A model generated the notes under the pieces. That model was not told where the DNA came from. It ran no database searches and was given only the letters and a program-made list of their open reading frames with translations. The position numbers were made by a program, and so were the translations under genes. A stretch of DNA of 64,000 nucleotides from Tubulanus polymorphus (lineage: Eukaryota > Animalia > Nemertea), in assembly GCF_964204645.1 (NCBI RefSeq), contig NC_134031.1:10790088-10854087 (forward strand). The letters are read 5' to 3'. Below, in pieces: positions 36,691 through 58,869 of this stretch. How positions within the stretch are numbered: the first letter of the stretch is position 1; each line of letters opens with the position of its first letter.

Positions 36691-38562
36691 GTCATTCCTT
36701 TCCTGTAGCTGGCCGTATTCGACTTTTTTTACCTTTTGGGAGTCATTAACTTCAGACAGTTATTTATTAGATTGTGTTAAAGGTTACCACATTGAATGGG
36801 AAAACCTCCCTCCATGTCAATTGGAGTTGCCTCGAACTATTTTCTTTTCGAGTAAAGAGCAGTCTGCTATAGACGTTTTATTATCTGAATTCCTTCAGAG
36901 GGGAATTATTGAGTTTGCTTCTCCATCTCATGGGCAATTTATTTCAAACATTTTTGTTGTCCCCAAGAAAGACTCTGGGTTTAGACTCATTTTGAATCTA
37001 ACTCATCTGAACAAATTTGTAAAATATTGTCATTTTAAAATGACTTCATTGAATACTGTTCTGAATTTAATGACGCCAGGTTGTTATATGGCTTCATTAG
37101 ATTTAAAAGATGCCTATTATTCTATTTCAATTTGCCCTGAAGATAGGAAATTCCTTAGATTTATTTGGAAAGGTCATCTTTTTCAATATACATGTCTCCC
37201 TAATGGGATTTCTTCGGCGCCTAGACTTTTTAAGAAATTATCAAAACCGGTTTTAACACCATTACGTCAGTTAGGTTACATCTCTGCCGATTATATCGAT
37301 GATATTTATTTGCAAGGGCTGGATTGTATCGAATGCAGTTCGAATGTATCGATTTCTAAAACTCAATTACAAAATTGTGGTTACTTTATTAATGAGGTCA
37401 AGTCAGAGAAGAAACCTGATGTTCAAAGTTTCTTGGCTTTTGGTTAAATTCAATGACTTGGAAGGTTTTCTTAGGTCAGGATAAGATTGAGAAAATAATC
37501 AAAGAGTGTTCCACATTGTTGCACAAACCAAATCCGTCTATTTGGCATATTGCCCATGTCGTGGGTGTTCTAGTTTCTTCCTTTCCTGCTGTGCCGGCAG
37601 GTCGATTATATTATCGAAATTTAGAAAAACTTAAGTCTATGTCTCTTTCTCAATCGTTAGGAGATTTCAATACTAAAGTCTCTCTTTCTGATGAAGCTAA
37701 GACTGATTTAATTTGGTGGATTGAGAATATTTCTCATTCTGCTTCTGCTCCAATTACACGTCATGCGCCTGATATAACTATTACCACTGACGCATCTCTT
37801 TCAGGTTGGGGTGCAATTATCAATCAAACTAAAACCTATGGGTTTTGGAATCCGCAAGAGAAATTGAATCACATCAATATTCTAGAGCTTAGGGCAGTTT
37901 TGTTTGCCCTTTTATCGTTCAGTGGACTTATTCAGAACAAACATATTCTTGTTCAATTAGATAATACCGTTGCAGTAGCCTACATTAAGAATCAGGGAGG
38001 AACAAAATCTCCTCAGTTGAATAGTTTAGCTAAACAGATTTGGCAATTAGTCTTCAAATTTAATTCATGGCTTTCTGTAACTCACATTTCAGGAATATCG
38101 AATTTTGATGCAGATATTTTATCGCGCGTTCAATCGGTCAATAAAGAATGGCAATTAGATAAGACTGCGTTCTCTGATATTATCAGAGTTTTTGGACAAC
38201 CTGAAATTGATCTATTTGCATCTAGAATTAATACCCAACGGGTTAAGTTCATTTCTTGGCATCCTGATCCTCAAGCTTTTTGTATAGATGCATTCACTGT
38301 GAATTGGTCAAATTGGTTTTGGTATGCCTTTCCTCCATTTAGTTTAATTGCTAAATGTCTGTCTAAAATTCAACAAGAAAAAAGTCACGGTATTCTTGTG
38401 GTGCCTAATTGGCCGTCACAATCATGGTATCCAAAGTTGATTAACTTGACTAATCAAACTTTCACTTTATCTTGCAGAAAGAATTTACTACGTCTTCCTC
38501 AAGATCCAGAGAAAATCCATCCGATTTACAAACAGCTAAGTTTGCTGGTTTGTCGCTTTTAA
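36572..38562 (+). pseudogene. DIRS reverse transcriptase, RNase H and Dam-like methyltransferase (break at ~37420-37450)
   Basis: FRLILNL, LDLKDAY, YIDD; TDASLSGWG, HINILEL, DNTVA; DLFAS, YAFPPF. Confidence 0.92.
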
Positions 38563-39521
38563 CACAACACTTGCTTTCTCTGGGTCTGTCAAATTTGTCG
38601 ATTAATTTGCTTTTGTCATCTCTTCGAGATTCAACTCTTCGGCAATATGATGTGTATTATAGACAATGGATCGATTATGTGACTCGCCGAGGGTGTGATT
38701 ATAGAAACCCATCTGCAGAACTTTTAGTTGATTTTCTTTCTTCATTATATGAGAAAGGCTTGTCATATAGTGCGATAAATACGGCAAGATCTGCTATTTC
38801 AACTTTTAGTTTTGCGTCACCATCCGCTAATATTGGGTCCGACCCTCTTGTGAAACGACTTTTCAAAGGTATTTTCGAGAATCGTCCTCCTATACCTAAA
38901 TATAATGATACGTGGGATGTTGGTATTGTCCTTCGTTTTTTGAAATCAGTAGAACCGTTACATGATTTGTCTCTATCTGATTTGACTAAGAAAACTTTAT
39001 GTTTAATGGCACTTGTTTCAGGACTTCGGCGTAATGTGCTTCATCAATTACGTATCGATGACATGAACATTTTTGATGATCATATAACCTTTCTTTTCGT
39101 CAAACAGAAACCAGATAGACCGGGGAAACCGACTCATCCGATTTCGTTTTTTGCTTATCCTTATGATAAATCGATTTGCGTTTTATCTTGTATCAAAGAA
39201 TACATTCGTGTAACGGCTGGTCTTAGGAAAGACAATCATCTTTTCATTTCTACTAAAAAACCTCACGGACTAGCGTCAAGTGAGACATTATCGCGCTGGA
39301 TTAAAGATGTCTTGTTCGCCTCTGGAGTTGATATCAACCGATACTCCAGTCATTCTACTCGTTCAGCTTCTGCGTCTGCGGCTGTTAAGACTATCCCAAT
39401 AAACACTATTCTCCAGGCTGTTGGTTGGAGCTGCGAACAGACTTTCGCAAAATATTACTATAAAACTGTAGTTGATCATCCTTCGAAGCAATTGGCTAAT
39501 GCGGTCCTTGCTTCAATTTGA
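38472..39521 (+). CDS. DIRS tyrosine recombinase
   Basis: SGLR, HSTR, VGWS..TFAKYY. Confidence 0.92.
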   Translation: MQKEFTTSSSRSRENPSDLQTAKFAGLSLLTQHLLSLGLSNLSINLLLSSLRDSTLRQYDVYYRQWIDYVTRRGCDYRNPSAELLVDFLSSLYEKGLSYSAINTARSAISTFSFASPSANIGSDPLVKRLFKGIFENRPPIPKYNDTWDVGIVLRFLKSVEPLHDLSLSDLTKKTLCLMALVSGLRRNVLHQLRIDDMNIFDDHITFLFVKQKPDRPGKPTHPISFFAYPYDKSICVLSCIKEYIRVTAGLRKDNHLFISTKKPHGLASSETLSRWIKDVLFASGVDINRYSSHSTRSASASAAVKTIPINTILQAVGWSCEQTFAKYYYKTVVDHPSKQLANAVLASI

Positions 39522-39578
39522 TTTAAGGTATTTATGTTTGTTTCCTTGTGTATAATAAGTTTCGGCAAAATAGATGAC

Positions 39579-39771
39579 AGTAATAGGGGTTTAGTTGTTC
39601 TAGATCAAAGGTCGAACGGTCGAGAAATTTTCCTAATGTGAAAATAACAATAATTTCTACTTGAATTAGTCGCGCACACTCCTAATTCAAGTAGAAATTA
39701 TTATTATTTCACATTTGAAAAATTTCTCAACCATTCAACCTTTAACCTAGAACAACTAAACCCCTATTACT
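39579..39771. repeat. Left terminal hairpin of B (193 bp)
   Basis: ~91-bp arms around the loop TCGCGCACACTC. Confidence 0.95.
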
Positions 39772-40018
39772 CTTAAAATATTCATATGCATGAATAAAAT
39801 ATATATGAATAGCATTTAAATTGATAGATTATTCAATATAAAAGTGTGAGCTCTTATGGAATAGATATATAGATATATTTACAACATTATTTCAATATTT
39901 ATATTTGTATGAGTTAGATTTTTAAACATTAAAAGTGTTAGTAAAGTGTGATTGAAATAATTCATATATAAATCATTGAACTTCTAAAATCAATTTAGTA
40001 AAAAAATATGTATAATAG

Positions 40019-40696
40019 ATGGAATCAGAACAACCACAAACTATCAATATTACAAAAAACACTGGCGTCATAAATATATACTACAAGAAGTGTTCTAAGT
40101 GTGAATTAGATAAATTAGCTTTAACAGAATTTAGTAAGCGTAAGATTAGCAAAGATGGTTTTCAATATTGCTGTAAAACTCGTACTAAACTATATACCAA
40201 ACAATATCGAGAAGATAATAGAGAAGCTTACAATGATTATATGACAGAATATATGAGAGGAAGATATCAAACAGATCTTAATTTTAGATTGAAACAATGC
40301 TTAAGATCTAGATTAACACAATTATTGAACAAAGAAACGCATTCAGAAACACTATCTAATTTGTTGGGTTGTACAGATGAATTTCTCAAATCATGGATTA
40401 TATTTCAATTCGACGATAAAATGAATATAGATAATTATGGGGATTATTACCATATTGATCACGTGTTACCAATATCTAAATTTAACATGAATGATGAATA
40501 CAATAAAAAACTTATTTGGAATTGGAAGAATTTAAGACCTTTAGAAAAGAAGGAAAACATAATTAAATCTAATAAACTAGATTTACAGTTATATTTAGAA
40601 CAGTTAACAAAGGCAAAGAAATTTATTGATCAATGGAACAATGATCCAAATAATGAACAATACGTTGAGGAATTTGATATCAAGGATCCGAAATGA
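40019..40696 (+). CDS. Zn-finger/HNH endonuclease-like protein
   Basis: CSKC; HIDHVLP..WKNLRPL..ENIIKSNK. Confidence 0.8.
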   Translation: MESEQPQTINITKNTGVINIYYKKCSKCELDKLALTEFSKRKISKDGFQYCCKTRTKLYTKQYREDNREAYNDYMTEYMRGRYQTDLNFRLKQCLRSRLTQLLNKETHSETLSNLLGCTDEFLKSWIIFQFDDKMNIDNYGDYYHIDHVLPISKFNMNDEYNKKLIWNWKNLRPLEKKENIIKSNKLDLQLYLEQLTKAKKFIDQWNNDPNNEQYVEEFDIKDPK

Positions 40697-41000
40697 CTTA
40701 TCTGGACAGTTATAATTACTGCTCCTAATAGATAAACAAAAGTAGTGAGATATTAAATCCTAATTTAAATAAAAAGTATTTAAAAAACAATAACTTCAAC
40801 TAGCTAGTGAATTCTATTATATTTTCAATATTTTCTTTTCAAAAAGAGAATACTTTATATTTTGAATAGATTCAAATAGAAATTCTTTAAATTCAAATAG
40901 CTAGTATCAGTAGTCAATACTAGAATTCTTTAGCTTTAACTAGCTAGTATCATTTGAAGAATACTTATAATATTTTTTTTGCTTTTTTTCTCTAATATAA

Positions 41001-41609
41001 ATGTCAAAGAAATCTAATAAGAATAGTATTGATATTGAAAAGACATTAGATGATTTGGGTATAAGTGATAATAAAGATACAGTTGCAACTAATTGTGCTC
41101 AAGTTAATTGTAATATAGATTATGAATACTATTTATATTGTAAGCATCATCTAGAACTATTGATTGCCGGTGGAAAAACTAAACAATTTTTAACTAAGAG
41201 TATTACTTTTCAAGAATTAGATGCTATGAAACCAGATAAAGTAATAAAATATTTTAAGATTTATGAAGAAGGTAGATTATCCCGAATAAATGATTCTATT
41301 TCAGATGGTATTGTCAAATGTTATTCTAAGTTATGTAACCAGTTAATACCAATTAATGATGAAAATAAATTATATAGTGATTTAAAAAATGACTACTTAG
41401 TTATGACTGAATTACAAAAATGGGTTGGATATGCTTCATTTCAATTAGGATCGGTTATGACATTAATTTCTACTGGTGTCATAACATTTTCGAATATCAA
41501 GCCTATGGAATATAAATCAGGTAAGAATGAAACAGATGACGCTGTACTACAACCAAACGTCGAAACAGAAAATGAATCAGAACAAAAATTAACTAAAATA
41601 AATGAGTGA
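41001..41609 (+). CDS. Polinton B hypothetical protein
   Basis: Intact, conserved with A. Confidence 0.8.
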   Translation: MSKKSNKNSIDIEKTLDDLGISDNKDTVATNCAQVNCNIDYEYYLYCKHHLELLIAGGKTKQFLTKSITFQELDAMKPDKVIKYFKIYEEGRLSRINDSISDGIVKCYSKLCNQLIPINDENKLYSDLKNDYLVMTELQKWVGYASFQLGSVMTLISTGVITFSNIKPMEYKSGKNETDDAVLQPNVETENESEQKLTKINE

Positions 41610-41955
41610 TGGCGTTAAGAAAAAGGCTAGATCCGAGAAACAAATTAAATGGGCAAGAGAATTGGGTAAAAGATCTTCAGAATTAAAAAAAGCTAAGAAA
41701 AAGAAATTAACTGATATAAATGAATCACAGACTTTATCTGATATTGATTCAAATAATAATCCATCTAATTCTTCTAATAGTGGAAGAAATAATTACTTAT
41801 ATATTACAATTGGGTTAATCACAATTATTATATTATCCGGTGTAATATATAAATCAAAATTCAAATCTGATGATAAATATGATTCCAATGACAATAAACC
41901 TATCATACCAGAAAATAAATCAAATCATAAAGCCATTGAAACTAAATCTAAATAA
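41602..41955 (+). CDS. Basic single-TM protein
   Basis: Conserved with A. Confidence 0.75.
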   Translation: MSDGVKKKARSEKQIKWARELGKRSSELKKAKKKKLTDINESQTLSDIDSNNNPSNSSNSGRNNYLYITIGLITIIILSGVIYKSKFKSDDKYDSNDNKPIIPENKSNHKAIETKSK

Positions 41956-41976
41956 TTATTAATGGATTGAAATAAG

Positions 41977-43071
41977 ATGAAAAAAGAACAATATTTAAGA
42001 GAGTTATATTATAACCCAGAAAGTGAAGTATCATATTCTAGCGTTTCAGAATTATGGAATAAAATTAAATCTGATAAAGATAATGAAAATATAAAATATA
42101 GTGAATTGAAATCATGGTTAAAAAATCAACCAACATATCAAATCCACAAGAAAATGGATAAAACTTATTTAACAAGAAAAGTTATGGTTTCATATATCGA
42201 TCAACAATGGCAAGCAGATTTAATTGACATGAAGAACTTAGAGGAATACAACAAAGGATATTTCTGGATATTAAATGTTATAGACATATTCAGTAGATAC
42301 GCATGGTCAATTCCAATCAAAAATAAAACTGGAATAGAAGTGACAAATGCTTTTAAATCTATATTTAAAGAAGCTATTCCAGATAAGATACAATTTGATG
42401 AAGGTAAGGAATTTTATAACAAACATTTTAAAAAACTATTATCTGATAACGATGTAAAATATTTTTCAACACACTCAGATAAAAAAGCATCTATTATAGA
42501 AAGATTTAATAAAACATTGAAATCTAGAATGTGGAAATATTTTACTGCTAATGAAACATATAAATATATCGATGAGTCGATAAATATATTAGATGATTTG
42601 GTGAAAGGTTATAATAATTCTAAACATAGTTCTATAAATATGAAACCTATACAAGCTAGAAAAGAAGATAATTCGGAAATAGTTTGGAATAATTTATATG
42701 GAGCATTTGTTACACATGATTTCGGAGAACCTAAATTTGAAATTGGTCAACACGTTAGAATATCTAAATATAGAAAAACATTTTATAAAGGTTATACTCC
42801 AAATTTTACAGAAGAAATATTTAAAATTAAAAAGATAATATTAACTAAACCTTTTGTTTATAAATTAGAAGATCTAAAAGATGAAGAAATATTAGGTTAT
42901 TTTTATGAACAAGAATTATCACTTGTACCAAACCCAGATGAAATAGAATACAAAATAGAAAAAGTATTGAAAACAAAAACTCTTAAAGGAAAAAAGTATT
43001 CTTTGGTGAAATATAAAGGGTATGATGATAAATTTAATGAATGGATTTATCTAGTAAAATTAAAAGAATAA
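41977..43071 (+). CDS. rve integrase with chromodomain
   Basis: DDE motifs as in A; C-terminal chromodomain. Confidence 0.95.
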   Translation: MKKEQYLRELYYNPESEVSYSSVSELWNKIKSDKDNENIKYSELKSWLKNQPTYQIHKKMDKTYLTRKVMVSYIDQQWQADLIDMKNLEEYNKGYFWILNVIDIFSRYAWSIPIKNKTGIEVTNAFKSIFKEAIPDKIQFDEGKEFYNKHFKKLLSDNDVKYFSTHSDKKASIIERFNKTLKSRMWKYFTANETYKYIDESINILDDLVKGYNNSKHSSINMKPIQARKEDNSEIVWNNLYGAFVTHDFGEPKFEIGQHVRISKYRKTFYKGYTPNFTEEIFKIKKIILTKPFVYKLEDLKDEEILGYFYEQELSLVPNPDEIEYKIEKVLKTKTLKGKKYSLVKYKGYDDKFNEWIYLVKLKE

Positions 43072-43676
43072 ATGAATAAAGATTTATTTATATTTGAACC
43101 GCATAATATGTTAGTTACTGGAGTAACAAAGTGTGGTAAAACACATTTCATATTAGATTTGTTAGAAACTATTTATAAGAATCATTTTGATAATATAATA
43201 TTATTCTGTCCTCCTTATGAAATGAATAAAACATATAATAGAGATATAGTTAAGATAAAAAAGTTTATTATATTAGATCGTAAAACAGTAAAAGAAAATT
43301 TAGATAATTGTATTAAAATAGCAATTGATACATATAAAGGATCAAATACATTATTCATTATAGATGATTGCGCAAATTTACATGATTCAAAAGTGAGAGA
43401 AAGTGAGTTATGTTATTTAGCTTTCTCTGGAAGACATTTTGGGATAACAACATGGGTTTTAAATCAAAAATATAATTCAATTGTTAAAGACTTTAGGGAG
43501 AATATAAGATTTCTAGTTTTATTCTACAATAAAAATCTATGCAACAATCATTGGAAGAAAATCAAATTATACCTACTGAATTACATGATGAATATATGAA
43601 TAAATTAAAGAATAATAAAGGTTCAAAATTATTACTGAGACTACAATTTCCCTATGAATATAAATTTATAAAATAA
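43072..43676 (+). pseudogene. Packaging ATPase (FtsK/A32-like), late frameshift
   Basis: GVTKCGKT, IIDD, GRHFGITTWVLNQ. Confidence 0.9.
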
Positions 43677-44075
43677 CTATTTATATACCTATGTATTAGA
43701 TACCCTATTAGATACCCTAATACCTGATACCCCATTAGATACCCTAATACCTGATACCCTAATACCTGATACTCTATTAGATACCTTAAATACTTAAAAC
43801 CCCCTTTTTTAAAATAAATATTATTTATACAATTTTCAACCAATTTATTTTTTTTTTCAACAAATATATGAATAAGTTTGAAAATAATAAAGGTTATTCA
43901 TTATTACTGAGGTTTCAATATAAATTTAAAAAAGAAATATAATTTAAGGTATTTTCAAATAATATGTATTAGATATGTATTAGATATGTATTAGATATGT
44001 ATTAGATACCTTAAATACCTTAAATACTTAAAACCCCCTTTTTTATTTACTATTATTTTATACAATTTTCAACCT
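43607..44075. repeat. Repeat-rich convergent junction of B
   Basis: Degenerate duplication of the ATPase 3' end; GATACCC-based repeats 43699-43790; (TATGTATTAGA)x4 at 43963-44006. Confidence 0.8.
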
Positions 44076-44181
44076 TAATTATTATTTGATTGTTAGATAA
44101 TTAATTTCTGAATCACTTTCATCATCACTCTCCAATTCATTATCAGGCCCTAACAATTTATTCAAATGCTCTACCGTATCT

Positions 44182-44934
44182 TCATAAATTATTTTCTGAT
44201 TTAAGTTTCATAGAATCTTTATTATCAATGCGCTTTCCTGTATTTTCATTATTATCTTTATTAGTATTTGCTCCTAATATTTCATTTACAGTGTTTGATC
44301 CTAATATTTCATTACCATCGGTTAAATCTAATTCATCTTTATTAGGTGTTGCTAATAAAAAATCTTCATATAATTCTTTACCATTTACTTTTTTATTTGA
44401 AACAAATTTTGTAACATATCTAAATGGGTGTTCTATAAATTCTCTTAAACCAACACGTTCTATAACATTAGTAATATGTGAATTTGTATTCATATGTTTA
44501 TTCCAATTTGATGGAGCGTTTGAAAATTCACCTTTACAATAATCACAATAATTTCTATTTTTACTAACATTTAATATTATTGCATTATTATATGTAGAAG
44601 GTATTGCATTATTGTATGGAGAGGGTATTACATTATTAGATGTAGAAGGTATTACATTATTAGATGTAGTAGGTATTACATTATTAGATGTAGTAGGTAT
44701 TACATTATTAGATGTAGTAGGTATTACATTATTAGATGTAGTAGGTATTACATTACTTAAATTATCAACAACACCACTTTTATTATTATCGATTTCTATT
44801 AGTTTAGTTTTATAAATTTTGAAAATAGGATCAAATATCAAAGCTATATTACAAGGTATAACATAATATAAACCATCATTATTTTCATGTGTATCGATGT
44901 ATGGAATATGTTTATATACTTTACCTCCTTCCAT
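44182..44934 (-). CDS. 8-aa-repeat/zinc-finger protein of B
   Basis: (NNVIPTTS)n; CDYC..H..H; N-terminus nearly identical to A, C-terminus unrelated. Confidence 0.78.
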   Translation of the reverse strand: MEGGKVYKHIPYIDTHENNDGLYYVIPCNIALIFDPIFKIYKTKLIEIDNNKSGVVDNLSNVIPTTSNNVIPTTSNNVIPTTSNNVIPTTSNNVIPSTSNNVIPSPYNNAIPSTYNNAIILNVSKNRNYCDYCKGEFSNAPSNWNKHMNTNSHITNVIERVGLREFIEHPFRYVTKFVSNKKVNGKELYEDFLLATPNKDELDLTDGNEILGSNTVNEILGANTNKDNNENTGKRIDNKDSMKLKSENNL

Positions 44935-44966
44935 TTATTATATAAATTTTTATTAAAGTTAAAATT

Positions 44967-46192
44967 TTAATACATAACACTATTCAATTGAGAATTTACA
45001 ATATTTAATTGCGCGTCAGATATAATATAAATGTGCATTTTAAAATTTTTGATTCCTTCATTCTTTGTCATGAATAATTGTATTCCATCTTTAGTGTTTT
45101 GTAATTTTTTTCCAGAACCATGTAATGAATTATCCTCTGTTGTTCTAAAATCTAACCATAATGCATATTTATTACCGGTATAATAATCAATTTGATTAAT
45201 ATTACAATTTTCAGATGATTTCACTTTTTCATTCATAAAATGTTTTCTAATTTCTGGCCATTGATCTATCATTCTCATTCCTTGACAAAATATTTTATTT
45301 GCTATTCCTTCGATAGTTATTTCTACTTTTGTTATTTCAGGATTATAATAATTATCAACATTTATTGCGCCATTAGTATATGTTGCAATGGTAAAAAATA
45401 TTAATATACCTTTAATAGATCTACTTGGGAAGTTAATATTCTCATTAATAATTTCATCATTTGCATTAATAGTTACGGTTTTAAATTTATCAATATAATC
45501 ATATAATAATGAAAATCCTTGATTGTATTTAGTTTGAATTATACTTGAAATATTTTCATCAGTTACTGTATCATATTCTAAACATATATTCGATAATTTA
45601 TAACTCATATCTTTATTAACGCTAGATATTACAATTTCATTAACAGGAGCAAATGTTATTTCGAATATAACGTCTTCTTGAATTGCGTATTTATATAAAG
45701 GTGCATTATTATTTATCAATTCAAAGTCTAGTGGAATTTTATATTTGCTTCCATAAATCTTTTTTATCAAATTATCTACAGCATTAGTTACTACTGCATT
45801 ATTGGCTTCAGATCTTAATTTATTTTGGTTTTCTGATTGGATGCCTTGAAATATCATATTATTTCTATTTTCTTTAGTTAACCATAAATCTTTATATCTA
45901 ATGAGAAAACTGTTTCTGGACCAATCTTTATTGTTAACTTTTTAATCAAATATCTCCCAACATTATCAACAACATAATTATTATTATTACCGAGTACTTT
46001 TATATCGGCTGATAGATAAATACTATTTGGAACATAAAAAGTATTTTGTGTTAATCGAGGAATTCTAACATATAAAGTTTCATCGGGATTAATATTTGAA
46101 GGATTATGAGTAATTATATGATGTGATCTTTCTGCTTTAATAGCATTAGATATTCTATGATTCTTAGAAGGATTGATATAACTCCCACTCAT
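44967..46192 (-). pseudogene. Major capsid protein of B, disrupted near 45860-45900
   Basis: ORFs 45878-46192 and 44967-45857. Confidence 0.82.
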
Positions 46193-46209
46193 TTATTTAA
46201 CAAAAAAAT

Positions 46210-47648
46210 TAATTATTTATTTTTGATCATGTTTACTAACCCAAAAATAATAGCACTTACAACTGTAATTAAAAATAAAATAATATGTTCAGCAGCAAAG
46301 TTAATAATGTTTCCTGCAGATTTCAATATAAAACCAACAATTGATGCAATAACTCCTGGTAAAGCTGCAGCAGATTTTTAAGATAGTTCCCATAAATATT
46401 TTGCTAATTTTTTAAAACCATCTTTAACTTTATCTTGTATAGAATTATTATCATTCGGGGGTTTATCTGGTTTATTGGGAGTAGGAGTAGATTTCAAAGA
46501 ATTTGATATTGCTAAACCAATTGTTGTAAATAACATAGTTACAGCCGTTAGAATTGAAAGAATTGTTATTCCTTCAAACTTAAATAATAATTTTATTCTA
46601 TCTTTCAATGATATTTTAGAATTTGGTTTTATTAGATATCTTTTAAAAACATCTTTTAATCTATCAATATTATAATCATATGATTTTAATAATAATTCAA
46701 TTTCTTCTTTTTGTAATTCTATGTTATATTCTAAATCATCTTTTTCTTTTTCTAAATATGCATTTCTTTTTCTAAATTCATTTTCTTCAATAACTTAATT
46801 ATCTCTATCTAATTTTATTTTTTCTATTTCTTCATTTTTATCAGTTAATTCATCTTCTAAATTTCTAATTTTTAATCTCTTACATTTTTATCATGCATAA
46901 TTTTATACTAATAATTTCTCTAATTGCTTTATCAGAAAATATATCTAAATCTTCTAATTCTTGATCTGCTGCATCAAGTAATCCATTCGGTAAAAGTTTT
47001 TCAATTGGAACTTTATTTGATTTAAGTTTACTAGTTTTGGAAGTTTTATTCTGTTCAGAAGTTGTTTCTGGTTCTAAATTATTATCGATTGTTTCAAATA
47101 ATTTTTCAATTCTTTGTTTAAATACTCTTTCATTTTTAATAATTTCTTCTTGTGTTACATCTTCTATTTCATTACTATTTCTTATTCTCTTAATTCTATC
47201 TGGTTTTAAATTAAGCAAAGTTGATTCTGCTAATATTTTGTTTTTGTTTTTTATAAGAGATATCTATATATTAATCATCCTTCAAACGATAATAATATTC
47301 ACCATCTAAAAACTTTAAGTCTTGTACTAAAAGTCTAGCGCTTCTATCATTTATATTATATCCAGATTCTTTAAATACATGTTGAAAATCATACATAAAT
47401 TCAATATTTTCTAAATTTTGTCTTACTAAATCTGGATTTTCATTTTCAGTAGGTATTCTCCATTTAGCTCCTCTAATATATTCATCTGTTGATTGGCCTT
47501 TAGAACCACTATCTGCTAAATTAGAATTATATGCTGATTCATCATCATTATCAATATTAGTTTCTGCATCATTATAATCATCATCAATATATCCTTCATT
47601 ATTATTTCCCATGCCTTCCATTTCATAATCTTCTCCACCTTCTGCCAT
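46210..47648 (-). pseudogene. Coiled-coil/amphipathic membrane protein of B, frameshifted
   Basis: ORFs 47271-47648, 46880-47218, 46378-46608. Confidence 0.7.
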
Positions 47649-47663
47649 TTACATAATAAAAAA

Positions 47664-49064
47664 TTAAAATTTAAAATATAATATTCCTCCGATTACAATT
47701 CCTATACAGGTTATAGCTAATTTAGTATTTTCATGGGATTTATTATCATCATTTAGTTTAATTATTTCATGTTGAATAATATCAGTTTTAATATCTTCTG
47801 ATGTATTATAATCTTTTATTTTAGAATCATCATTTAATTTAATATTCTTAGTTTTAGTTTCTGTTGATTGAATGTGTTTTTTATTTTTTTCACCTTCCAT
47901 TAATTTTGGAGCAGTGATAATCTTTTTATTTATATCATTTAATCCAAATGAATTATTTATTGTTGCAGTTTTAATTAGATTATTATAACCAATTATGTTT
48001 CCCATCTTTAATACTAAATCATTAGAAATAATAGATAGATTAGGGCCTATACAATAATTTAATCTAATATGTGATTTATCTAAATAACTTTGATATCTTT
48101 GAAACAATGTTTTCCGGAATCGATCTATTTTTATCATTATGAATAGAATCTTCAAATAATACTTTGAATTGTTTCTGTGTATCAAATGATGTATTTAAAT
48201 TGTTATGTTTCCAATTATTGGGGATCTTGTTTCAACTTGCGCGCCTAGAATACATATCAAATAAGTTCTAATAGATTGATTTATTCTTTGTATACCTGAT
48301 TTTGTAAAACCTTCATTATTTTCTAAAATGAAATAAACCCAACCATTATTGTTTTCGTGTTTTAAATTATCATAAAATGTCGGTAATTTATTGAAATTTA
48401 ATGTTTCTAAATCCTTAGTTTCTATTTTACCATAACCTAATTTATTACTATAGATATTATAAAAACTATTAGATGGTATGGGAAGTGCACAATATTCTGC
48501 AATCTTTTTAGGGCAAGGAAGTGATCTTATTGTTCCAATTTTTGTTCTAAAATCAGAATTATTTATATCTATATTAAATTCATTACAAATTTTATAAAAC
48601 TTTGATAAATTAATATTATTATCTAATTCTTTAAAATATCTAGATCCTGGTAAAGCGCACTCTAATTCATTTAATATTATTCTGATTTGAAAGTATGTAT
48701 GAAATCTAAATAAACTTTGAATTAATTTATATTTAGAATTATTCAAATGATCATTCCAACTAATTCCACATCCTGTTGTTGCACAATAAACAGCAAAATT
48801 TAATTGGTTCTGCCAATACTTCATATTAGATTTTAATAACCATTGTTTTTCATCTTTCAATTTTTTAAAATCAATTAAATATACATGAAATATATTTTCC
48901 ATCTTTGCATTAAAATTATTAGTTTCAGTAACATAAATTTCTAAATTAGTTAATGAATCTAAAACTTCATTTCTATATGTAATATCTTTATTAAAATATA
49001 TTGCAGGAATATTATATTTAATTGATTTATTATATTGGAAAGCTTTTGGAAAACTATCTACCAT
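47664..49064 (-). pseudogene. Conserved hypothetical protein (WQNQLNFAVYCATTGCG) with C-terminal TM, frameshifted
   Basis: ORFs 48195-49064 and 47664-48185. Confidence 0.72.
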
Positions 49065-49080
49065 TTATATAATTAAAAAA

Positions 49081-49515
49081 TTAATAATTAACTAATTCTT
49101 TTAATAATTTATCTTGTTCTTCAACTGTTATATGGCCATTTAAACTTATTATATAATCTAGTGTATTCTTTAATTTATTAATTTCTTTTATATTAGTTTT
49201 AATTTTTTCTTTATTACTTTTTATATTTAATTTTGAACTTATACCAGTTAAAACACTTGAACTTAATCCTAATACACCAATTGATATAGCTAAAGGCGTT
49301 AATGGACTGAATATTGCTAGAAATGTTATTACAGAACTAATTGTAACCGAACCACTTATAATCAAATAATATATAATTTTAATTTTTAAATATTTTTTCT
49401 TTTTAACTTTTAAGTCACTTTCAAATTCTAATATTTGTTTTTCTAAATATGTTTTTAATTTAGTTTTATTTATATCATGAGGAATAATATCAATATTATC
49501 AACTTTATCATCCAT
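49081..49515 (-). CDS. Two-TM protein
   Basis: Hydrophobic hairpin flanked by basic helices. Confidence 0.75.
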   Translation of the reverse strand: MDDKVDNIDIIPHDINKTKLKTYLEKQILEFESDLKVKKKKYLKIKIIYYLIISGSVTISSVITFLAIFSPLTPLAISIGVLGLSSSVLTGISSKLNIKSNKEKIKTNIKEINKLKNTLDYIISLNGHITVEEQDKLLKELVNY

Positions 49516-49535
49516 TTATTTAGCAAAAAAAATTA

Positions 49536-49958
49536 CTAATTAGTAAACTTATATGCTACAAATATAACAATAACAGTTCCACCTAAAATCCAAATTATTT
49601 CATATTTCTTCTGTTCATTACTTGGGGTATAATAATCTGGTAATTCAGGTTTGTATAGATGTAATATTTCTTTATTGGTTACCACGTTATATAAACTCAT
49701 TGCATCATCAACTGATTGAAAATCTCTGTGTGAAATCTTCTGATCATATAATTCCTTGTTAATATAATCCATATAGTTTTGTCTCTTTTCTCTATATTCT
49801 TCTGCTGCTTTATTGTATTTCTCTAATGCTAAGTTATGTCTTTTTTGTTCTGTTAATGATCCATTTTTATCAATATGCTTAAATAAATAACCACCACCAG
49901 TAAATGCTAAAGCGTTAACAATTGCCGATCCTATAATAGTTATAATTGCAGAAGCCAT
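49536..49958 (-). CDS. Small conserved protein (GSAIVNALAFTGGGYLF..EQKRHNLA), C-terminal TM
   Basis: Intact ORF, conserved with A. Confidence 0.78.
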   Translation of the reverse strand: MASAIITIIGSAIVNALAFTGGGYLFKHIDKNGSLTEQKRHNLALEKYNKAAEEYREKRQNYMDYINKELYDQKISHRDFQSVDDAMSLYNVVTNKEILHLYKPELPDYYTPSNEQKKYEIIWILGGTVIVIFVAYKFTN

Positions 49959-49982
49959 TTATTTAGCAAAAAAATTATGCAT

Positions 49983-50203
49983 TTATATGGGAGGAATATA
50001 TTTTTGTTTTTCCAAATAATCAATAGTTAAATTAGATAAAGTAACTGCTAATGTTAATTTTAAAATATCATTTATATCAAATCTATCAACATTAACACTT
50101 CCCATTTTGAATACTTTTTTAATACCATTGAATAACCAACAGTTCCAACTGATAGTAATGCTCCATTATATAATGCAGTTATTATCCACTTATTATCACT
50201 CAT
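49983..50203 (-). pseudogene. Small hydrophobic protein (frameshifted homolog of 33311-33532)
   Basis: Sequence match to A. Confidence 0.7.
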
Positions 50204-50560
50204 TTATTTATCAAAAAAATTACTATCATCAAAATATTTAGTTATCTTATTTATGATTAATTCAACATTTATTTCATTACTAGTTTCATTTGTATATATT
50301 TCAATTATTATTTTTTTAATATCATCGATGATAAAATCTTCATCTAATTCATAAAATCTTAAAGATTCTCTAATTAAATTAGTAATCTTTTCTACATTTA
50401 AAGTTTCTTTATCTATTGTTGTTTCACACTCAAATGTTGTTTCATTAGAAAATGTAATATTTTTGATATGTGTAATTACATCATTAATGTAAAATTTCAT
50501 TTCTTTCTCATGTTTAAAATCAAACCCAAAACATATGCTCGGCCCAACAGTTATATTCAT
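50204..50560 (-). CDS. Acidic hypothetical protein
   Basis: Intact ORF with TAAATG start; conserved with A. Confidence 0.7.
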   Translation of the reverse strand: MNITVGPSICFGFDFKHEKEMKFYINDVITHIKNITFSNETTFECETTIDKETLNVEKITNLIRESLRFYELDEDFIIDDIKKIIIEIYTNETSNEINVELIINKITKYFDDSNFFDK

Positions 50561-50576
50561 TTATATAATGAAAAAA

Positions 50577-51331
50577 TTACTCTCTACATCTTATAACTAA
50601 TTCATAAATTACAGGAAAGTTATTCAAATCAATTAAATATCCATTGTGATTTCTTATTTCTAATTTAAAATTATTAAATTTAGGAATGCAAGGTTTAAAA
50701 TCACATTCTGTTAAATTATAATTTATTTGAGTTCCAAATTGTTTAACATTTTTTAGTGGTAAAATATCTAGTATACTAGAACTACAAATTGTTTCTTTAG
50801 TTGCTTCGAAAGTTTTGTAGGCTCGATTAAATTGCAATAAATATAAAAGTGTGTAAAAGGTATTATATTTGAGCTGCCTTCTGCGTTTCCAGTAACTGTA
50901 AGCGGTTTAATACCTCACATTTTAGCCAGTGGTTTGTTTACCATAAATTTATGTTGTTCATTAGATATCTTTATTCTAATTTTATTAGTACTATCAATTT
51001 TATTAAATTTAATTTCAGATACAGAAGTGCCCCCGATTTTCAACCGAGCTCTTCTATTAATTTCCTGCGCTAATGATTCTAAATTATATAATCCTGGTTT
51101 TAAAAATATATGAAACCATTTATCTTTATTTCTCATATAAATCATAAACCCTCTATGTTCAAAAGTTTTATCCGATACATTGTAAAAAGAATTACATAAA
51201 CTTATATTTACTAATTTTAAATCTACACAATTCTTAAATTCTCTATCTAATTGTACTAGTAAATTATGAGATTTATAATTTGTAAGTCTTCTAGAATCAA
51301 CAAATATTCTGTATTCTTTTAATTCTACCAT
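50577..51331 (-). pseudogene. Minor capsid (penton-like) of B
   Basis: ORFs 50915-51331 and 50577-50837; VDS..L.REF..LVNISLCNSFYNV..IDLNNFPVIYELVIR. Confidence 0.75.
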
Positions 51332-51345
51332 TTATTTTACATAGT

Positions 51346-51699
51346 TTATTCGAAATCTATTTCATGGTGGCCTTTTTTATGCTTACCTTTGTATACGAAA
51401 TAGAAATCACCAGAACATAATTCTTCTAAATCTTCACTTGATAATCTATGAAATCTATCTGGTAAATATGTTCTGAATTTATATGTATTTCCTTTTAATC
51501 CTTCATATTCTAAGTGTATAACTAATTTATCTCCATATTTGTTAGTAACTGTATCAATATTTGTAATTAGATATTTCTTATGGATTGTTAATTCTGGTAA
51601 CTTTTTGAATTTATAATCTACAGATTTTACATTTGTGATATCTTTTATTCTATCTAGAAATAATTTGTTGTTCTCACTGTTTGCTTGTTTACTCTCCAT
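51346..51699 (-). CDS. Putative OB-fold ssDNA-binding protein
   Basis: KKLPEL..KY.IT....NKYGDKLVIHL..TYLPDRF pattern; adjacent to pPolB. Confidence 0.55.
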   Translation of the reverse strand: MESKQANSENNKLFLDRIKDITNVKSVDYKFKKLPELTIHKKYLITNIDTVTNKYGDKLVIHLEYEGLKGNTYKFRTYLPDRFHRLSSEDLEELCSGDFYFVYKGKHKKGHHEIDFE

Positions 51700-51728
51700 T
51701 TATAATACATGTTTTTATTAAAATTTGA

Positions 51729-54700
51729 TTAACACGTTAGAATTCTTTTCATTATTTCCTTCTCTTTTGTTTCTTCTCTTTTAAATTTTAAGTATTCATC
51801 TAAATTGCAACCATATGCAACTGTATGAATTCCATCATCTAAAATATATCTTTTATCATCAAATGGGTTTAGACTTATCTTTTCAATTTCTTCAATAAAC
51901 ATTTCATGATCTTCAGATCTTAAACATCTCATCTTATGTTTTCTAACTTCTTCATTGAATATACAATTGATGTAATCTTTGAAATGAATATTCTTTTCTA
52001 CTACACTTTTGGTTATTCCTTTTAACTTTTTAGCTTCATGTTCTTTAGTTTTATATGAATACATTTTAGATCTAATACCGATGAATTCAATCATTTCTTC
52101 ACCGCCTAATTCATCCTTAAACTTCCCTGGAACTTTTTTATTATCATTGCTAAACAATTCATGATCTTTAGGATAGTTACTAAAATCAAAATGATGTTTT
52201 AATGTTTTTAAATCATCAGTTATGTTATCAGTTTTTATCTTTAATATGTAAGAATCGGTATCAAAATATAATATTTCTATATGTTTTTCTCCAAAAAGTG
52301 GTTGTAATACGTTATAATAGAATTCATACATCAATAGCTTTGATATTTCTAAAACTGAAGCGCCAACATAGATTGGTTTATTAAATTTCATTGATGTTCT
52401 TCTCATCTTAACTGCAGCTAAATTTTCATCAAATATTCTGTTACCAATGAACTAAGGATATGATTGTAAATGTCTAATTCTTTTTCCATTACTAACTAAC
52501 TCAATATCATTTCTATTTCTAATATTTTCACAAGTCTTACCATAGAATGCATTATTCATTAACTTGAAGAAATCTTTCTCGAAATCAGTTTTAGCTTCAG
52601 TTCTCTGTTTGGTGTTAAAATCTATATATTTTTCTAACCACTTAGATTGACTAAATGAAATATATCTATGTACTTTTTTTAGAATCATTCCTTGATTCAA
52701 ATAAAACTTCAACATTCTATAATGTACTACATAATTATATTTATCTTCTTGAGTTACCATTAACTTTTCTGCATGAATAAGATTTTCGGGTTTAATTCTT
52801 TTTTGGTAATTTGATAATTCTTCATGAGTTACAGTTTTATGTTCGGGACAGTAAGCTAGATTTCTAGATTTAAATTTAATATGTTCAGGATATTCTAAAT
52901 CTACAACGAAGAAGTAACCAGTATCTGAATCATCTGCAATATCTAGAATTCTTTTCTTCCAATCAAATTTATCATTATTTTCATTCTGTAAAACTTCAGT
53001 TATTTGAAATACTCCATAAGGTTGTGGTTCCATCATTGCCCAACCATACAAATTATTTGCATCTATATATAATAACTTATATCCAGGGTTATCATTTACA
53101 TTGAAATATCTATCACCTAATACACCCGAAACTCCTCCTCTTATAGATTTTTCAAATAATAGTAATTGATCTATATTTGTTAACAAATCCATTTTTATAT
53201 CTGTAAGTTTTAATCCACAATCCCATGTTAAACCTGGTGATGAATAACAATGACAAGGATCAATGTTAAAATATTTTAGGTTTACATCTCTAAACCTTTC
53301 GAATAGATCAGTTAATAATAATACATCTGATTTTAGATATAAATCTACTAATTGCCCATGATTTTCTATTTTGAAATGATTCCAAATATTCAATGTTCTA
53401 TTATATACTTCATCTTTAACATATTCATTTTTTAATTCATCATAGAATTGTTCTTTTAATAATTCAGTTATATTGAAATCATTATGTGATTTATAAAATG
53501 AATATGGAATTGCTCCTTAACATCTCATTAATTGAAAATCATCATTATTTGGGTAATATTCTTTTAATATTTTTAATTCAGCATCAACTAATGATTTTGA
53601 TAAGTTATCTAATGAACTATTTAAAAATCTATATGAATCTATAAATCTTAAACACCCAAATTGGACTTATATATAATTCTCAGATGTTTTAGCTAACATT
53701 CTAAATTTATAAGTTGGTATTTTATCTTTTGATCTATTTGAATTTAATCTTTCTATTTCATTATTAATTTCTTCTATTTTATGGCATAACTGTTTGATGA
53801 ATAAATGTGCATCATATCCTGATAGATTATGAAATATAACTGGAACAAAGTTAATTTTCTTAGCTTGTAAGTTAAAATTCTCATGTGCGGCACCTCTAAA
53901 CTTTCCATTCAAATGATCATGGTCTCTTACTTTTTTATCTTTATAATTAAATATCTTTTCACAATAATAACATTTATCTGCAAACGCAAATTCTTCTTTA
54001 TCTTCTTCTGTCATTATAATTTCTATATTTGTATTCAATAATTTACTAAATCTTATTTCATATTCAATTAATAAGTCACAAAAATGATTGATAACATTTT
54101 CATTTCTATAATCATAATATTCACTTTCAATTAGTTCTGGATAATCAGATTTAATATATAACCCGAAAGCTGCAGCTGATTGATGAATCTTTTTAATAGT
54201 ATTTGTTTTTGGTGGTTCTTCAGAATAATCATTTTCATTAGAATTTAATTTCTTTCTCTTATAATATATTTCTTTTCTATCTTGATCGGTTAATTCTTTA
54301 TTTAATGATTCAAAATCTCCATATATAACAAATGGTACTTTATTTCTGTAATCATATTTTTTGAATTCTAATATTTTATCTTTTTCATTTGGTAAAACTA
54401 ATTTACAATAATCATGATTTTCACATAATTGTTTATGATTTAATAATGCACTTTCAGTTCTGAATTTATGTAAACATTTTCTACATAGATATATTTTATT
54501 ATCAAAATCATTTTCTGATTTAAAAAATAAATCGATTCTTTTAATCCACATATAATGATTCTCATAATATATTATATCTATAACATCGTTTGAATCATAA
54601 TCTTTTGATAGATATAAAGGTTCTAATGTATAATGTTTTATATTGTTACCTTTTGTATTCGGTAATTTGATTAAATCAAATACATTTATCTTTATATTAT

Positions 54701-55753
54701 TATCTCTTTCTATCTTTTAATTCTAACAGGATACTTATCTATCTTATAATTATTTTCAAATGGTTTATAATGAGTTAATCTACAAATATTATAAGTTGCA
54801 GGATGTAAACAACTTATCATAGTCCATAGAAAACATTTATCATCTTCATTTTGTACATTTATAACAGCATTAGTTTTAAATGGTAGTTTAATATAACTCG
54901 ATGCTTCAATATCTGGTTCTTTATAATATGATACATTATTTTCATCAATCGGTTTTGATTTAGTTAACTTATTATATTTTGTGTTATAAACATGTAAAGT
55001 CATAAATATTATTTCATCAAATATTAAACCAGATCCTTCAAAATATTTCTCTTCTATTTTAGTTTTTACTTCATTATAACATTTATCTAATTTATCATCT
55101 ATATGTTGTTTAGATATAATATGTTGTGAATGAGAATTTATATTATATATTGGTTTATCTTCAGATTTTATAAACTTTACTTTAAATTATATACTAATTT
55201 TAGGATATTCAACATCAGTTATTATTTTTATTATTTCTTTCATATTTTCTAAATGTTTTTTATTTTCTTCTAATGTTTTTCCTTTATGAAATTTAAACTC
55301 GATAGCTGCTGGGCCAATATCACTTTTAAATGCTTCGGTTATCTCTATATCTTTTTTATTATCTAATGAATTAATATAATTTCTTACATCTTCCATGTAT
55401 GGTCTTTTATTGTTTAATTTATTTTTTATGCTTTTAATTGTCTTCTGTTTCTTATCATTATCTTTATCAAAATAATCTTCACCTAAAATATCATTATTCT
55501 TATTTCTAATATGGCTTTTTGATTTTAAATGTTCATTATAATATCTTTTATCACTGAATGATTGATTACATGTATCACATTTGTATGTTTCTTTTTCAAT
55601 CTTTAATTCATCTAATTTAGTTTCTAATATATCATCTTTATCTTCTAGTTACAATTTATTCTCTAAATGTGTTTTAGTTTTATTGTGTCTTGCTTTTTGG
55701 GATTTATCTATATTGATATTACATGTTGGACACTAGTACTTATTTGCTTCCAT
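51729..55753 (-). pseudogene. Protein-primed family B DNA polymerase with N-terminal Zn fingers and endonuclease VII-like insert, frameshifted
   Basis: YGDFES, FHNLSGYD, LYIDANNLYG, KLMNNAFYGK, YFDTDS; CYYC..VRDHDHLNGKFRGAAH. Confidence 0.95.
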
Positions 55754-55986
55754 TTTAATACTAAATTTTTTATTAAAATTGATTTTAGAAGTTCAATGAT
55801 TTATATCATGTATTATTTCAATCACACTTTACTAACACTTTTAATGTTTAAAAATCTAACTCATACAAATATAAATATTGAAATAATGTTTAAAATATAT
55901 CTATATATCTATTCTATAAGAGCTTACACTTTTATATTGAATAATCTGTCAATTTAAATGTTATTCATGTATATGATTATTTTAAG

Positions 55987-56179
55987 AGTAATAGGGGTTT
56001 AGTTGTTCTAGGTTAAAGGTTGAATGGTCGAGAAATTTTCCAAATGTGAAATAATTATAATTTCTACTTGAATTAGGAATGTGCGCGACTAATTCAAGTA
56101 GAAATTATCGTTATTTTCACATTTGGAAAATTTCTCGACCGTTCGACCTTTGATCTAGAACAACTAAACCCTTATTACT
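55987..56179. repeat. Right terminal hairpin of B (193 bp)
   Basis: Reverse complement of 39579-39771 and self-complementary. Confidence 0.95.
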
Positions 56180-58869
56180 GATGACTTTGAAATCTCATGG
56201 AATTACGAGCATTCTGGTATAATGGAGAAGAATTTAGAAATTAAACGAGACTTACCTGTAAGTTGAAGTTTGATTGTAATTCTTCGGAATTATACCAGAT
56301 GCGAGTGATTACATGCCCGCCCTTTTCTAATGCCCACCCATCTCGCATCTGGGTTTGTGTTAGAATATTATTTTTTCTTCTGTGTTTCATACAGATTAAT
56401 TTAAGAATTCTCGCATCTTTTTCGTTTTTATTGCGAAACGAATTTCATGCTTTTCTTTTACATCTATCTTGCCTCTTTAAGACTTTGAATAGTGACGTAA
56501 CGGAAGTAGCCTCAATCTCATGTAATCACTCGCATCTGGTATAATTCCGAAGAATTACAATCAAACTTCAACTTACAGGTAAGTCTCGTTTAATTTCTCA
56601 ATTAAATCGCTTGAAATCCGGATTTTTAATGCATACAGGCAGCATAATGAGGAAAACCCATTCACAAACCGTGCAAGGCAACTTAAACACTATGAGTATG
56701 CTCAATATTCCCTGCAAGACACAAAATATCTTATTTGAACGTTCATGTATAAAAGTAACATGGAGCAACTTTTATTTTGTCAACACGTTGATGGGCGACG
56801 GACTATGTCACTATGGTATTCTCTGAAGGAGGTAAATTAAATTTGACAGCTAGTTATATAAATGATGCAGCTTTTGGACAAAAGGGATCTAACTAAATTT
56901 CTTTTTAATTCACTGTGGAATGGAATGGAATGGAATGGATTGACGCCAATGGCATGCAGTAGGCCCCTACGTATGGGTCATACTAATTAGCGTCAACCAA
57001 TTAATCTAAATCGGGCAAACCATTCAACAACTGTGAATAATTAATTTGCTGTGGCGTGATAATAATTAGTTTTTTTGAAGAAATGACATACCAACTGTTA
57101 GAAAAATGTACCGATTCTTATTTTTAGACTACTACTGAATCTATAAAAGGAGGAGTCATAGACAAAGTTGATTTGCTTAGCTGGAGACACTTCTTGTCTA
57201 GTACATCATCTCAAGTACTGGGTGTTTTGTAAGTTTCAGTATTTATTTACTAAGTGCTGTTTTCTTGGACCTCAGGGCTTTCAAACTAGGCCCACCCCAT
57301 AGGCTATATAGTCCAGGGTGTATTAGCCACTATTCTTTTATATCCTACTAAAATGCACCTTTTTCTATTTTTAGATTCAGGCTTAGAATGTGCAAATTTT
57401 TTGAGATACTGAGAAATCAGATGGCACCAGTAAACTTCAACTGCGAAATTTGCAGCAGGATAGCTGAACGACACAATTTTTAAAAATAAAATGGCTATTC
57501 GAATGCTATTTCAATAATAACTTGATTCAACCAGAGAGAAATAAGTAAATTGCGGATGTACAGTACACCCACTTTTCTTCCCTGTTTCCTGGTACCAAAT
57601 TTTTAGTCTTAAGCTAAGCGATATTCTAAGGTATGCTAGTGGATTTCATTAGAATATGAAGCAATGGAACCAGAATTCTAGCCAGAGTTAAGCGAACTAT
57701 TGATTCTGATATAATGTAAGAACTGATTTCCTTTGTGTACTCTTGCAGAATATGTTACGTATTATTTCAAGCTGTTAAATAATATAGTTAGACAAACGTC
57801 CAATTATTGGATCTTTCTTGTTGACTCGTTTAATTTTGTGAGTTAAGAGTTCAAGTCAATCCACAATGTGCAGTGCCTAGCCTTCATCTACACTAAAGCC
57901 AAGCCTGTGTATGGGAAAATATCATTCGACTCCTATAGGCCAGACAAATCAAAGCATGCAATACATTGCAGATAGTAGTCTCCGGCAAGTCGAAAGAGAA
58001 AGTAAACCAGGTTCCGGGAACAAAGACACTTAAAGACTCCTTCCTCCTTGTAGAAATTGTAGAAATATGGCACCCAATCGTAGCAATGCTAAGTACAGTA
58101 TACTATGACGGTTGAACCTTTATTAACGAATTTCAATGACACCGAAAATAGAATCAAAATAATCATTAGTTCCGTGCTAGCACTTAATTTGGGTTATCAG
58201 GTTCAGCCTAACTGTACTTTCATTCAGCTACTACTTGTATGAGACTTGGCAATGATAAGTTGCAAGAAATCACCAAACATAAGAAAAAATATTGTGAATT
58301 AATATTACTGTAATTAAGAATGTATGCCAATGAAGTGATAACTTCATTGTTAGATCGTACCGGTATATGCACATAAAACTATGGCAAAAAAAAAACACAT
58401 CTAACAATCCACGCAATCCGCAATCGATCAAGTCGATCATGACAACGACCTTAAGGCATGTCTCTGTAACCGAAGGTAGAGCATAAAACACGGTTCAGGA
58501 CTCGTCAGCGGACACCGGCCCTGAAAACATTTCAAAACGTGTATTGTCGGTACCTAGCACGATTTCAGCGTTTTTCGGGAATTCCCTGAAATTTCGGCAT
58601 TTTTCGGAAATTCCCTGAAATTTCAGCGTTTTTATTTCAGCGTTTCAGCTTTTCAGTGTTTCAGCTTTTTCAGCGAAGTTCAGGAACCGCTGTAACAATA
58701 TCTGTAATTAGATATTTCTTATGGATTGTTAATTCTTTTTACTTCTTAAATTTATAATCTACTGATTTGACATTTGAAGTATCTTTTATTCTATCTAAAA
58801 ATAATTTGTTGTTCTCACTGTTTGCTTGTTTACTCTCCATTTATAATATATATTTTTATTAAAATTTGA

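Follow-up and report, generated by a model that had tools for sequence, protein, structure and literature searches.

Poxvirus-type start signals on the genes of a Tubulanus polymorphus Polinton and its relatives: a candidate helper-transcribed element

Here, we describe a 64,000-nucleotide stretch of the genome of the nemertean Tubulanus polymorphus (assembly GCF_964204645.1, contig NC_134031.1, forward-strand positions 10,790,088 to 10,854,087), referred to below as the window and numbered from its first letter. One family of Polintons is present in the window as three copies (A, B and C) and a fragment, which are 86–95% identical across their overlaps and have a GC content of about 24%, against 30–42% in the flanks. 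Our subject is element B (39579–56179), an integrated Polinton of 16.6 kb in which most genes begin at the same short motif, TAAATG. This start motif is real and lineage-wide, and it bears on the transcription of Polintons integrated in animal genomes and on whether a helper virus is needed for this.

Polintons, or Mavericks, are recognised by terminal inverted repeats of several hundred base pairs with AG...CT ends and by a 6-bp target-site duplication. Element B is flanked by such a duplication, the same 6-mer being found at 39573–39578 and 56180–56185, and is bounded by inverted repeats of about 450 bp that are 91% identical. The left repeat (39579–40027, plus strand) extends over the start of the first gene, encoding an HNH protein, and thus includes its promoter, while the right repeat (55745–56179, minus strand) includes the promoter and start of pPolB, the polymerase gene. 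Both repeats open with the same imperfect hairpin of 193 nt (39579–39771 and 55987–56179), which has the same orientation at the two ends. Comparable hairpins open the terminal repeats at 20358–20674 and 59790–60007, the overall range being 190–320 nt, and the outer stem is kept in A, B and C, mismatches included, around an inner part that varies.

The plus strand of B encodes an HNH/endonuclease VII-like protein (40019–40696; PHROG 1035, E=8e-15, its homologues having no informative names), a 202-aa protein (40983–41609) from a widespread unnamed family of 468 clusters that gave no Pfam or PDB match and no usable Atlas match, a basic protein of 117 aa (41599–41955), an rve integrase with a chromodomain (41977–43071; Pfam rve E=1.5e-9, above the cut-off, and Chromo E=6e-4) and a frameshifted A32-type packaging ATPase (43069–43676; Pox_A32 E=8e-12). 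On the minus strand lie a truncated zinc-finger/repeat protein gene (44182–44937), the major capsid gene, of double jelly-roll type and split in two (44967–46208), a broken gene for a coiled-coil/membrane protein (46230–47663; about 485 aa in relatives) and an interrupted, conserved unnamed gene (47664–49080), whose product has 442 aa in the 11.5-kb relative L001 and gave a poor fold when modelled alone (pLDDT 32) and no usable Atlas match. These are followed by genes for a 144-aa membrane protein with two helices and a weak SLATT match (49081–49532), a 140-aa protein with an amphipathic N-terminus (49536–49974), a candidate protein X-like product, a frameshifted 75-aa hydrophobic protein (49983–50219), an unnamed 118-aa protein (50204–50576), a putative minor capsid protein, broken (50587–51334), a 117-aa candidate single-strand-binding protein (51346–51702) and pPolB, in pieces (51729–55753).

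The integrase, capsid and ATPase genes are those expected of a Polinton, as is pPolB, whose profile matches are weak because the gene is in pieces but whose catalytic motifs A, B and C can be read in the open reading frame (ORF) pieces. The model of an intact capsid relative, 73% identical to the B capsid, has a double jelly roll (pLDDT 85) and was matched by Foldseek to an iridovirus capsid (E=8e-16) and also to the capsids of PBCV-1 and mavirus. No Pfam match to an adenain-type maturation protease was found in B or L001, in which unnamed genes remain. Eight of the 16 genes of B are broken (those for the ATPase, zinc-finger, capsid, coiled-coil, 442-aa, 75-aa and putative minor capsid proteins are interrupted or truncated, and pPolB is in pieces), and copy B alone cannot produce virions.

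A preliminary description of this DNA had reported that 13 of the 16 genes start exactly at TAAATG, that eight of them have a T-run shortly upstream and that the TAA is mostly not the stop codon of the preceding gene, and these counts and coordinates were reproduced. The exceptions are the HNH gene (TAGATG at 40019, with the TAA present in A), the integrase gene (TAAGATG at 41977) and pPolB (TAAAATG at 55753). TAAATG occurs 52 times in B, and TAA precedes 39 of the 661 other ATGs (Fisher p=3e-13). A run of six to eight T residues ending 6–8 nt before TAAAT is found at eight of the 13 starts and at none of the 39 non-start TAAATG (p=2e-6). These are the starts of the genes for the 202-aa protein (41001; T7 and 8 nt), the capsid (46192; T7 and 6 nt, the whole signal being at 46190–46208), the coiled-coil protein (47648), the 442-aa protein (49064; T6 and 7 nt, signal at 49062–49080), the 144-aa protein (49515; T8 and 6 nt), the 140-aa protein (49958; T7 and 6 nt), the 75-aa protein (50203; T7 and 6 nt) and the 118-aa protein (50560; T6 and 7 nt). 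Across 300 block-wise dinucleotide shuffles of B the full motif occurred 0.37 times on average and three times at most, compared with eight in the element itself. The remaining TAAATG starts belong to the plus-strand 117-aa gene, where the motif falls within the last codons of the gene upstream, and to the ATPase, zinc-finger, putative minor capsid and minus-strand 117-aa genes. While the T-run variant heads the capsid block, an A-rich upstream variant is found at pPolB and at the HNH, zinc-finger and minus-strand 117-aa genes. The recurrence of the pattern in A also holds, but A is 86–91% identical to B and does not provide independent support.

The survey of related Polintons that had been proposed as a check extends the motif over four supported capsid subclades spanning 20–44% GC. 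A metagenome scan yielded 25 loci. Heavy decay led us to set aside L021–L025, and L002, L011 and L014 were dropped because they nearly duplicate L003 and L013 (the broken capsid gene of L011, starting TGAATG, is an exception to the motif). The capsid tree was a quick one of 74 rows with SH-aLRT support only; L017, with a single start at TAAATG, was not placed in it, and L016 was grouped by its near-identity to L015. Within the four subclades TAAATG opens 41/46, 9/11, 10/10 and 4/5 curated starts (64/72, or about 89%), as against 1/13 in the loci outside them (L015, L016 and L018–L020), and 60 of the 64 curated TAAATG starts have a T exactly 9 nt upstream. The same position stood out in a start set defined mechanically as every TAAATG opening an ORF of at least 60 aa, together with one curated short start (n=67), T being found 9 nt upstream of TAAAT in 62/67 cases compared with 35/111 other TAAATG (p=1e-16). 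In this set, T is also present at -10 in 50/67, A at -15 in 50/67 (38/111 elsewhere) and G or A at +4 in 64/67. The zinc-finger gene retains its A-rich type in L003 and L010. In L001, a deoxynucleoside kinase gene (10340–10981; Pfam dNK E=2e-31) likewise starts at a T-run and TAAATG.

Beyond these loci, a more distant capsid group (P0061–P0120, about 40% identical) lies on long contigs, one of them named from a bivalve. No relatives were found in the IMG/VR protein scans or among phage records, and the sole match in prokaryote genomes was an ATPase fragment at a contig end. Capsid homologues 55% identical (P0009, P0244–P0251) are annotated as hypothetical proteins on short contigs of several Bartonella assemblies, probably through eukaryotic contamination.

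The layout of these starts resembles that of poxvirus post-replicative promoters. As set out in the available text of two sources, vaccinia late promoters have a T-containing core 5–7 bp before TAAAT(G/A), produce messages with no 5' untranslated region and conserve a T at 'the 10th nucleotide upstream', and intermediate promoters combine TAAA with an A-rich upstream region (PMC5294985, PMC11980589). The Polinton starts have both late-promoter features, namely TAAAT followed by G or A over the start codon and a T-rich core with a single conserved T, the latter with a one-base offset from the review's wording. TAAATG is also described as kept at many core genes of a fish poxvirus (PMC4542343, in part), and slippage at the initiator is reported to give 5' poly(A) leaders in both vaccinia and yeast linear elements (PMC6211774, in part). 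TAAAT or TAAAA lies within 6 nt of 69 of the 72 starts inside the subclades, offset ATGs included, which would be expected if the initiator were independent of the codon. Such features support the view that the motif marks transcription starts in the manner of poxvirus post-replicative promoters. Reading TATAAA as a TATA box was rejected, as transcription would then be expected to start inside conserved N-termini.

The preliminary description had proposed a poxvirus-like helper reading the virion genes, and on both counts it was too narrow. Of 121 loci inspected among the matches listed when viral contigs were scanned for the motif, 89 lacked any ORF that begins with TAAATG, and 26 contained one. 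One of the listed matches, the 288-kb asfarvirus-like record G001 (38% complete), encodes a second-largest RNA polymerase subunit that matches PDB 8xx4/8q3b at E=5e-103 and vaccinia rpo132 at E=3e-26; we take these PDB entries to be the African swine fever virus polymerase. Of the 20 ORFs in an 18-kb stretch of G001 chosen around the polymerase gene, five begin with TAAATG (27/794 ATGs overall), each of them with T at -9. The signal is thus shared on the asfarvirus side, at part of the genes, and the helper need not be a poxvirus; we do not claim G001 as the helper, and VLTF3 was not found in it at 38% completeness. Nor is the signal limited to virion genes, as other genes carry TAAATG too. 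The further idea of an antiviral provirophage found no support here. One G001 ORF starting at TAAATG (L073, 1135–1488) is perhaps Atg8-like, judged by eye, and a 7.3-kb viral contig, G002, has a head-to-head gene pair 37 bp apart with TAAATG at both starts (L102, 1292–3020), perhaps marking another small element with the same promoter.

What stands of the earlier proposal is that the starts behave as signals of poxvirus type, in an element with no recognised RNA polymerase. The Pfam and PHROG scans, which covered 29 proteins or pieces from the window, 23 proteins from relatives and 70 from the 202-aa family, gave no match to an RNA polymerase, capping enzyme, TATA-binding protein (TBP) or late-factor (VLTF) family. 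Neither B nor L001 has a recognisable RNA polymerase, as would be expected of a helper-dependent element. We consider it probable that the B promoters mimic those of a cytoplasmic virus of pox or asfar type, whose polymerase would transcribe the element during co-infection. The signal has two parts, a T-rich run with T fixed 9 nt upstream and then ATAAATG(G/A), which together probably make a poxvirus-type post-replicative promoter. Transcription would begin inside TAAAT and give messages with no templated leader; through slippage on the A triplet these would gain a 5' poly(A) leader in place of the T at -3, which is unfavourable. Expression and packaging of an active copy would take place in the factory of the helper, after which the chromodomain integrase would return the element to the host genome, as in mavirus, with copies kept in the germ line. 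More tentatively, the A-rich variant (pPolB, zinc-finger and 117-aa genes) might be an earlier, intermediate-like class and the T-run variant of the capsid block a late one; such a two-stage cascade is only suggested, as swaps between the two classes limit it.

Several observations weigh against transcription by a helper of this kind. The A-rich and T-rich classes are swapped for two genes between B and L001, the capsid tree does not resolve joint monophyly of the motif-bearing subclades, and the motif is short, AT-rich and not exclusive to poxviruses. Counted back from the T of TAAAT, its fixed T stands in 9th place, or in 10th if the count starts from the first A, where the review has the 10th, plausibly a difference in counting. 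The genes of an endogenous adintovirus in Amoebidium, though not its capsid genes, are transcribed after demethylation with no helper, as described in part of PMC11244446. Several B genes are unnamed, and one of them could encode a transcription factor. On the side of such a helper, the polyadenylation signal AATAAA occurs about once per 170–210 coding nt in the AT-rich members, with observed and synonymous-shuffle expected counts of 60 and 59.0 in L001, 27 and 28.3 in L003, 32 and 30.3 in L010, and 53 and 50.5 in B (172 against 168 together), that is, with no avoidance. Relatives that lack the motif have 4 against 9.6 expected (Poisson P=0.04, a small sample), and these counts lean weakly towards non-nuclear transcription. 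The contrast is a weak one, mid-GC members having 15 against 19.9, and the nuclear DIRS/transposase control in the window is not depleted either (5 against 6.2). TTTTTNT is depleted on the coding strands but equally in the same control, and is therefore not diagnostic. Finally, the mechanism is predicted from sequence alone, and no helper virus was found.

Other explanations of the motif fall into those that deny it a role in transcription and those that assign it to another polymerase. Chance, through AT-richness and biased ORF calling, has in its favour the 24% GC of B and its many copies of TAAATG, and it is refuted by the internal controls given above, those with p=3e-13 and p=1e-16. GC content is not the cause of the motif, since TAAATG opens 9 of 11 starts (against 8 of 372 other ATGs) in L005–L007, at 36–44% GC, and 0 of 7 in L015 and L016, at 29–30% GC; we regard chance as practically eliminated. 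The motif might instead be a signal of translation or of 3' ends, be it stop-start coupling, AATAAA, a T-run terminator, a trans-splice acceptor or a Kozak context. TAA is indeed the upstream stop at two of the 13 starts in B (43072, where it ends the integrase gene, and 50203) and at one of 15 in L001, AATAAA lies within many starts, and T-rich motifs follow stop codons in pacmanvirus, according to a source available in part. However, of seven head-to-head gene pairs within the clades six show TAAATG on each strand, with only 19–30 bp separating the ATGs in five of the six, and the T-runs persist in these gaps, where there is no upstream 3' end at all. The general cause can therefore be neither stop-start coupling nor an overlapped poly(A) signal, nor a terminator for the gene upstream. 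Where genes do overlap, the motif occupies the final codons of the upstream one, which gives unrelated upstream proteins similar C-terminal residues. A trans-splice acceptor was ruled out, since AG is absent from the interval separating T-run and ATG in all eight B cases. The usual animal Kozak context has a purine at -3; the motif is opposed to it in having T there, a purine being present at 7 of 72 starts inside the subclades and at 10 of 13 starts outside. A translation or 3'-end signal is accordingly very improbable as an explanation.

A real initiator could also be read by some other polymerase. If host RNA polymerase II were to use it in the nucleus, aided by a factor that the element encodes (such as the zinc-finger, 202-aa or 442-aa protein), the resemblance to poxvirus signals would be convergence on leaderless messages within a compact genome. 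Polintons integrate in the nucleus, several of their conserved genes have no known function and the host can transcribe adintovirus genes, as the Amoebidium case in the accessible part of PMC11244446 illustrates. We nevertheless hold this to be rather unlikely, as the Pfam and PHROG scans found no TBP or other known factor, AATAAA is common and not avoided in the coding strands of AT-rich members, T at -3 requires a mechanism that adds a leader, and the 19–30 bp bidirectional gaps leave only 13–24 bp between initiators. A polymerase supplied by a second cytoplasmic linear element, as pGKL2 does for pGKL1 in yeast, is in our estimation improbable. Those yeast elements have a TAAAN initiator, poly(A) leaders made by slippage and stem-loop 3' ends, going by the available text of PMC6211774, and the Polintons share with them a protein-primed type of polymerase and have hairpins where genes converge. 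Such a hairpin, long and of unrelated sequence from one element to the next, lies between the ATPase and zinc-finger genes, which run towards each other, in A, L002, L003 and L010 (window about 25275–25390; L003 3740–3830; L010 3180–3255) and is possibly a shared 3'-end signal; that of B has decayed, with short tandem repeats in its place (43690–44030). But no such partner element is present in the window or the 25 related loci, and the yeast upstream element resembles an early promoter, in contrast to the late-type T-run here.

Around B, the window contains other copies of the family and unrelated mobile elements. Element A (about 20358–34837) is a truncated and decayed sister copy with the same start motif, which includes a 1.6-kb tandem duplication (27807–31034, 97% identical) joining pieces of the capsid and coiled-coil genes. 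A Polinton fragment (58456–59789) precedes element C (59790–64000, plus strand), a terminal repeat and broken pPolB running past the window end. Raw DNA reads labelled Tubulanus polymorphus, over 38000–47500 only, reach a depth of about 600–900 across most of the element and about 20 on the flank, mostly at 90–99% likeness, and 416 of them exit the left end of B into differing sequence (agreement 0.37). Roughly 30 dispersed, diverged copies would thus be present in the genome, assuming a single-copy flank. Between A and B lies a DIRS-type retrotransposon (35100–39560) with gag-like, reverse transcriptase, RNase H and tyrosine recombinase regions, part of which has been merged into one NCBI gene model; over 58% of its length, one of its ORFs is 100% identical to a protein that carries the name of Tubulanus polymorphus at NCBI. 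Decayed transposase-like ORFs are found on the minus strand at 9380–12352 and 12570–13330, beside an AT-rich repeat array.

The promoter is a 30-bp unit amenable to reporter assay, and being readable from sequence it splits related Polintons into a group predicted to be helper-transcribed and a host-type group. It also predicts a cytoplasmic large DNA virus of marine invertebrates that is as yet unseen. A bolder and doubtful extension is that this widespread lineage of marine-animal Polintons is a heritable virophage of a pox- or asfar-like cytoplasmic virus, whose dozens of silent genomic copies, equipped with the helper's intermediate and late promoters, would wake only on infection and blunt it. 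If true, this would be the first inducible antiviral system of the mavirus style in an animal, with the promoter predicting the nature of the virus.

In the open-access literature we found no description of Polintons with TAAATG or poxvirus-type late promoters. The closest in gene content, the animal Mavericks, Polintons and adintoviruses, share with B pPolB, a chromodomain integrase, the ATPase, a double jelly-roll capsid, terminal repeats and the 6-bp target duplication; neither 'promoter' nor 'helper' occurs in the available text of Starrett et al. 2021 (PMC8502044), and B differs from the elements described there in having no recognised maturation protease. Vaccinia late and intermediate promoters, as far as the sources available go, have the same TAAAT(G/A) over the start codon, a T-rich core about 5–8 nt upstream with a fixed T, and the A-rich variant, whereas the element carrying the signal here is 16.6 kb long and lacks a recognised RNA polymerase; the signal heads about 89% of starts, and its activity is predicted. 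To our knowledge, yeast pGKL1 and pGKL2 have neither capsid nor integrase. They resemble B in being AT-rich and protein-primed with a TAAAN initiator, and unlike B they encode their own polymerase (PMC6211774, available text).

Among proposed parasites of large DNA viruses in animals, the Polinton-like viruses (PLVs) AHEV_PLV1/2 and CBEV_PLV1 of entomopoxviruses come nearest, being Polinton-like and suggested to be poxvirus hyperparasites (Barth et al. 2024, PMC11296320, in part). They differ from B in having no rve integrase, in encoding a cysteine protease and in coming from occlusion bodies, and the case for B is made on its promoter, a word with no occurrence in the available main text of that study. 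A transpoviron of an asfarvirus relative is described as carrying helper promoters (PMC11788076, in part), and the sharing of helper promoters is documented, in the portions available, for mavirus, Sputnik and Gezel-14T (bioRxiv 2022.07.28.501842, 2025.10.09.676808, 2026.07.28.741278). The mavirus/EMALE virophages of Cafeteria, whose helper is CroV, are, according to partly available sources, like B in having genes headed by a helper-type late promoter and in integrating into genomes. Mavirus encodes pPolB and an rve integrase and has terminal repeats. In comparison with these virophages, B, which is known only as a genomic sequence, has a capsid of the Polinton lineage, a likely animal host and the TAAATG layout in place of the CroV late motif. 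If the helper-transcribed reading of B is true, promoter mimicry by virophages extends from protists to an animal, and from relatives of mimiviruses to the pox/asfar branch.

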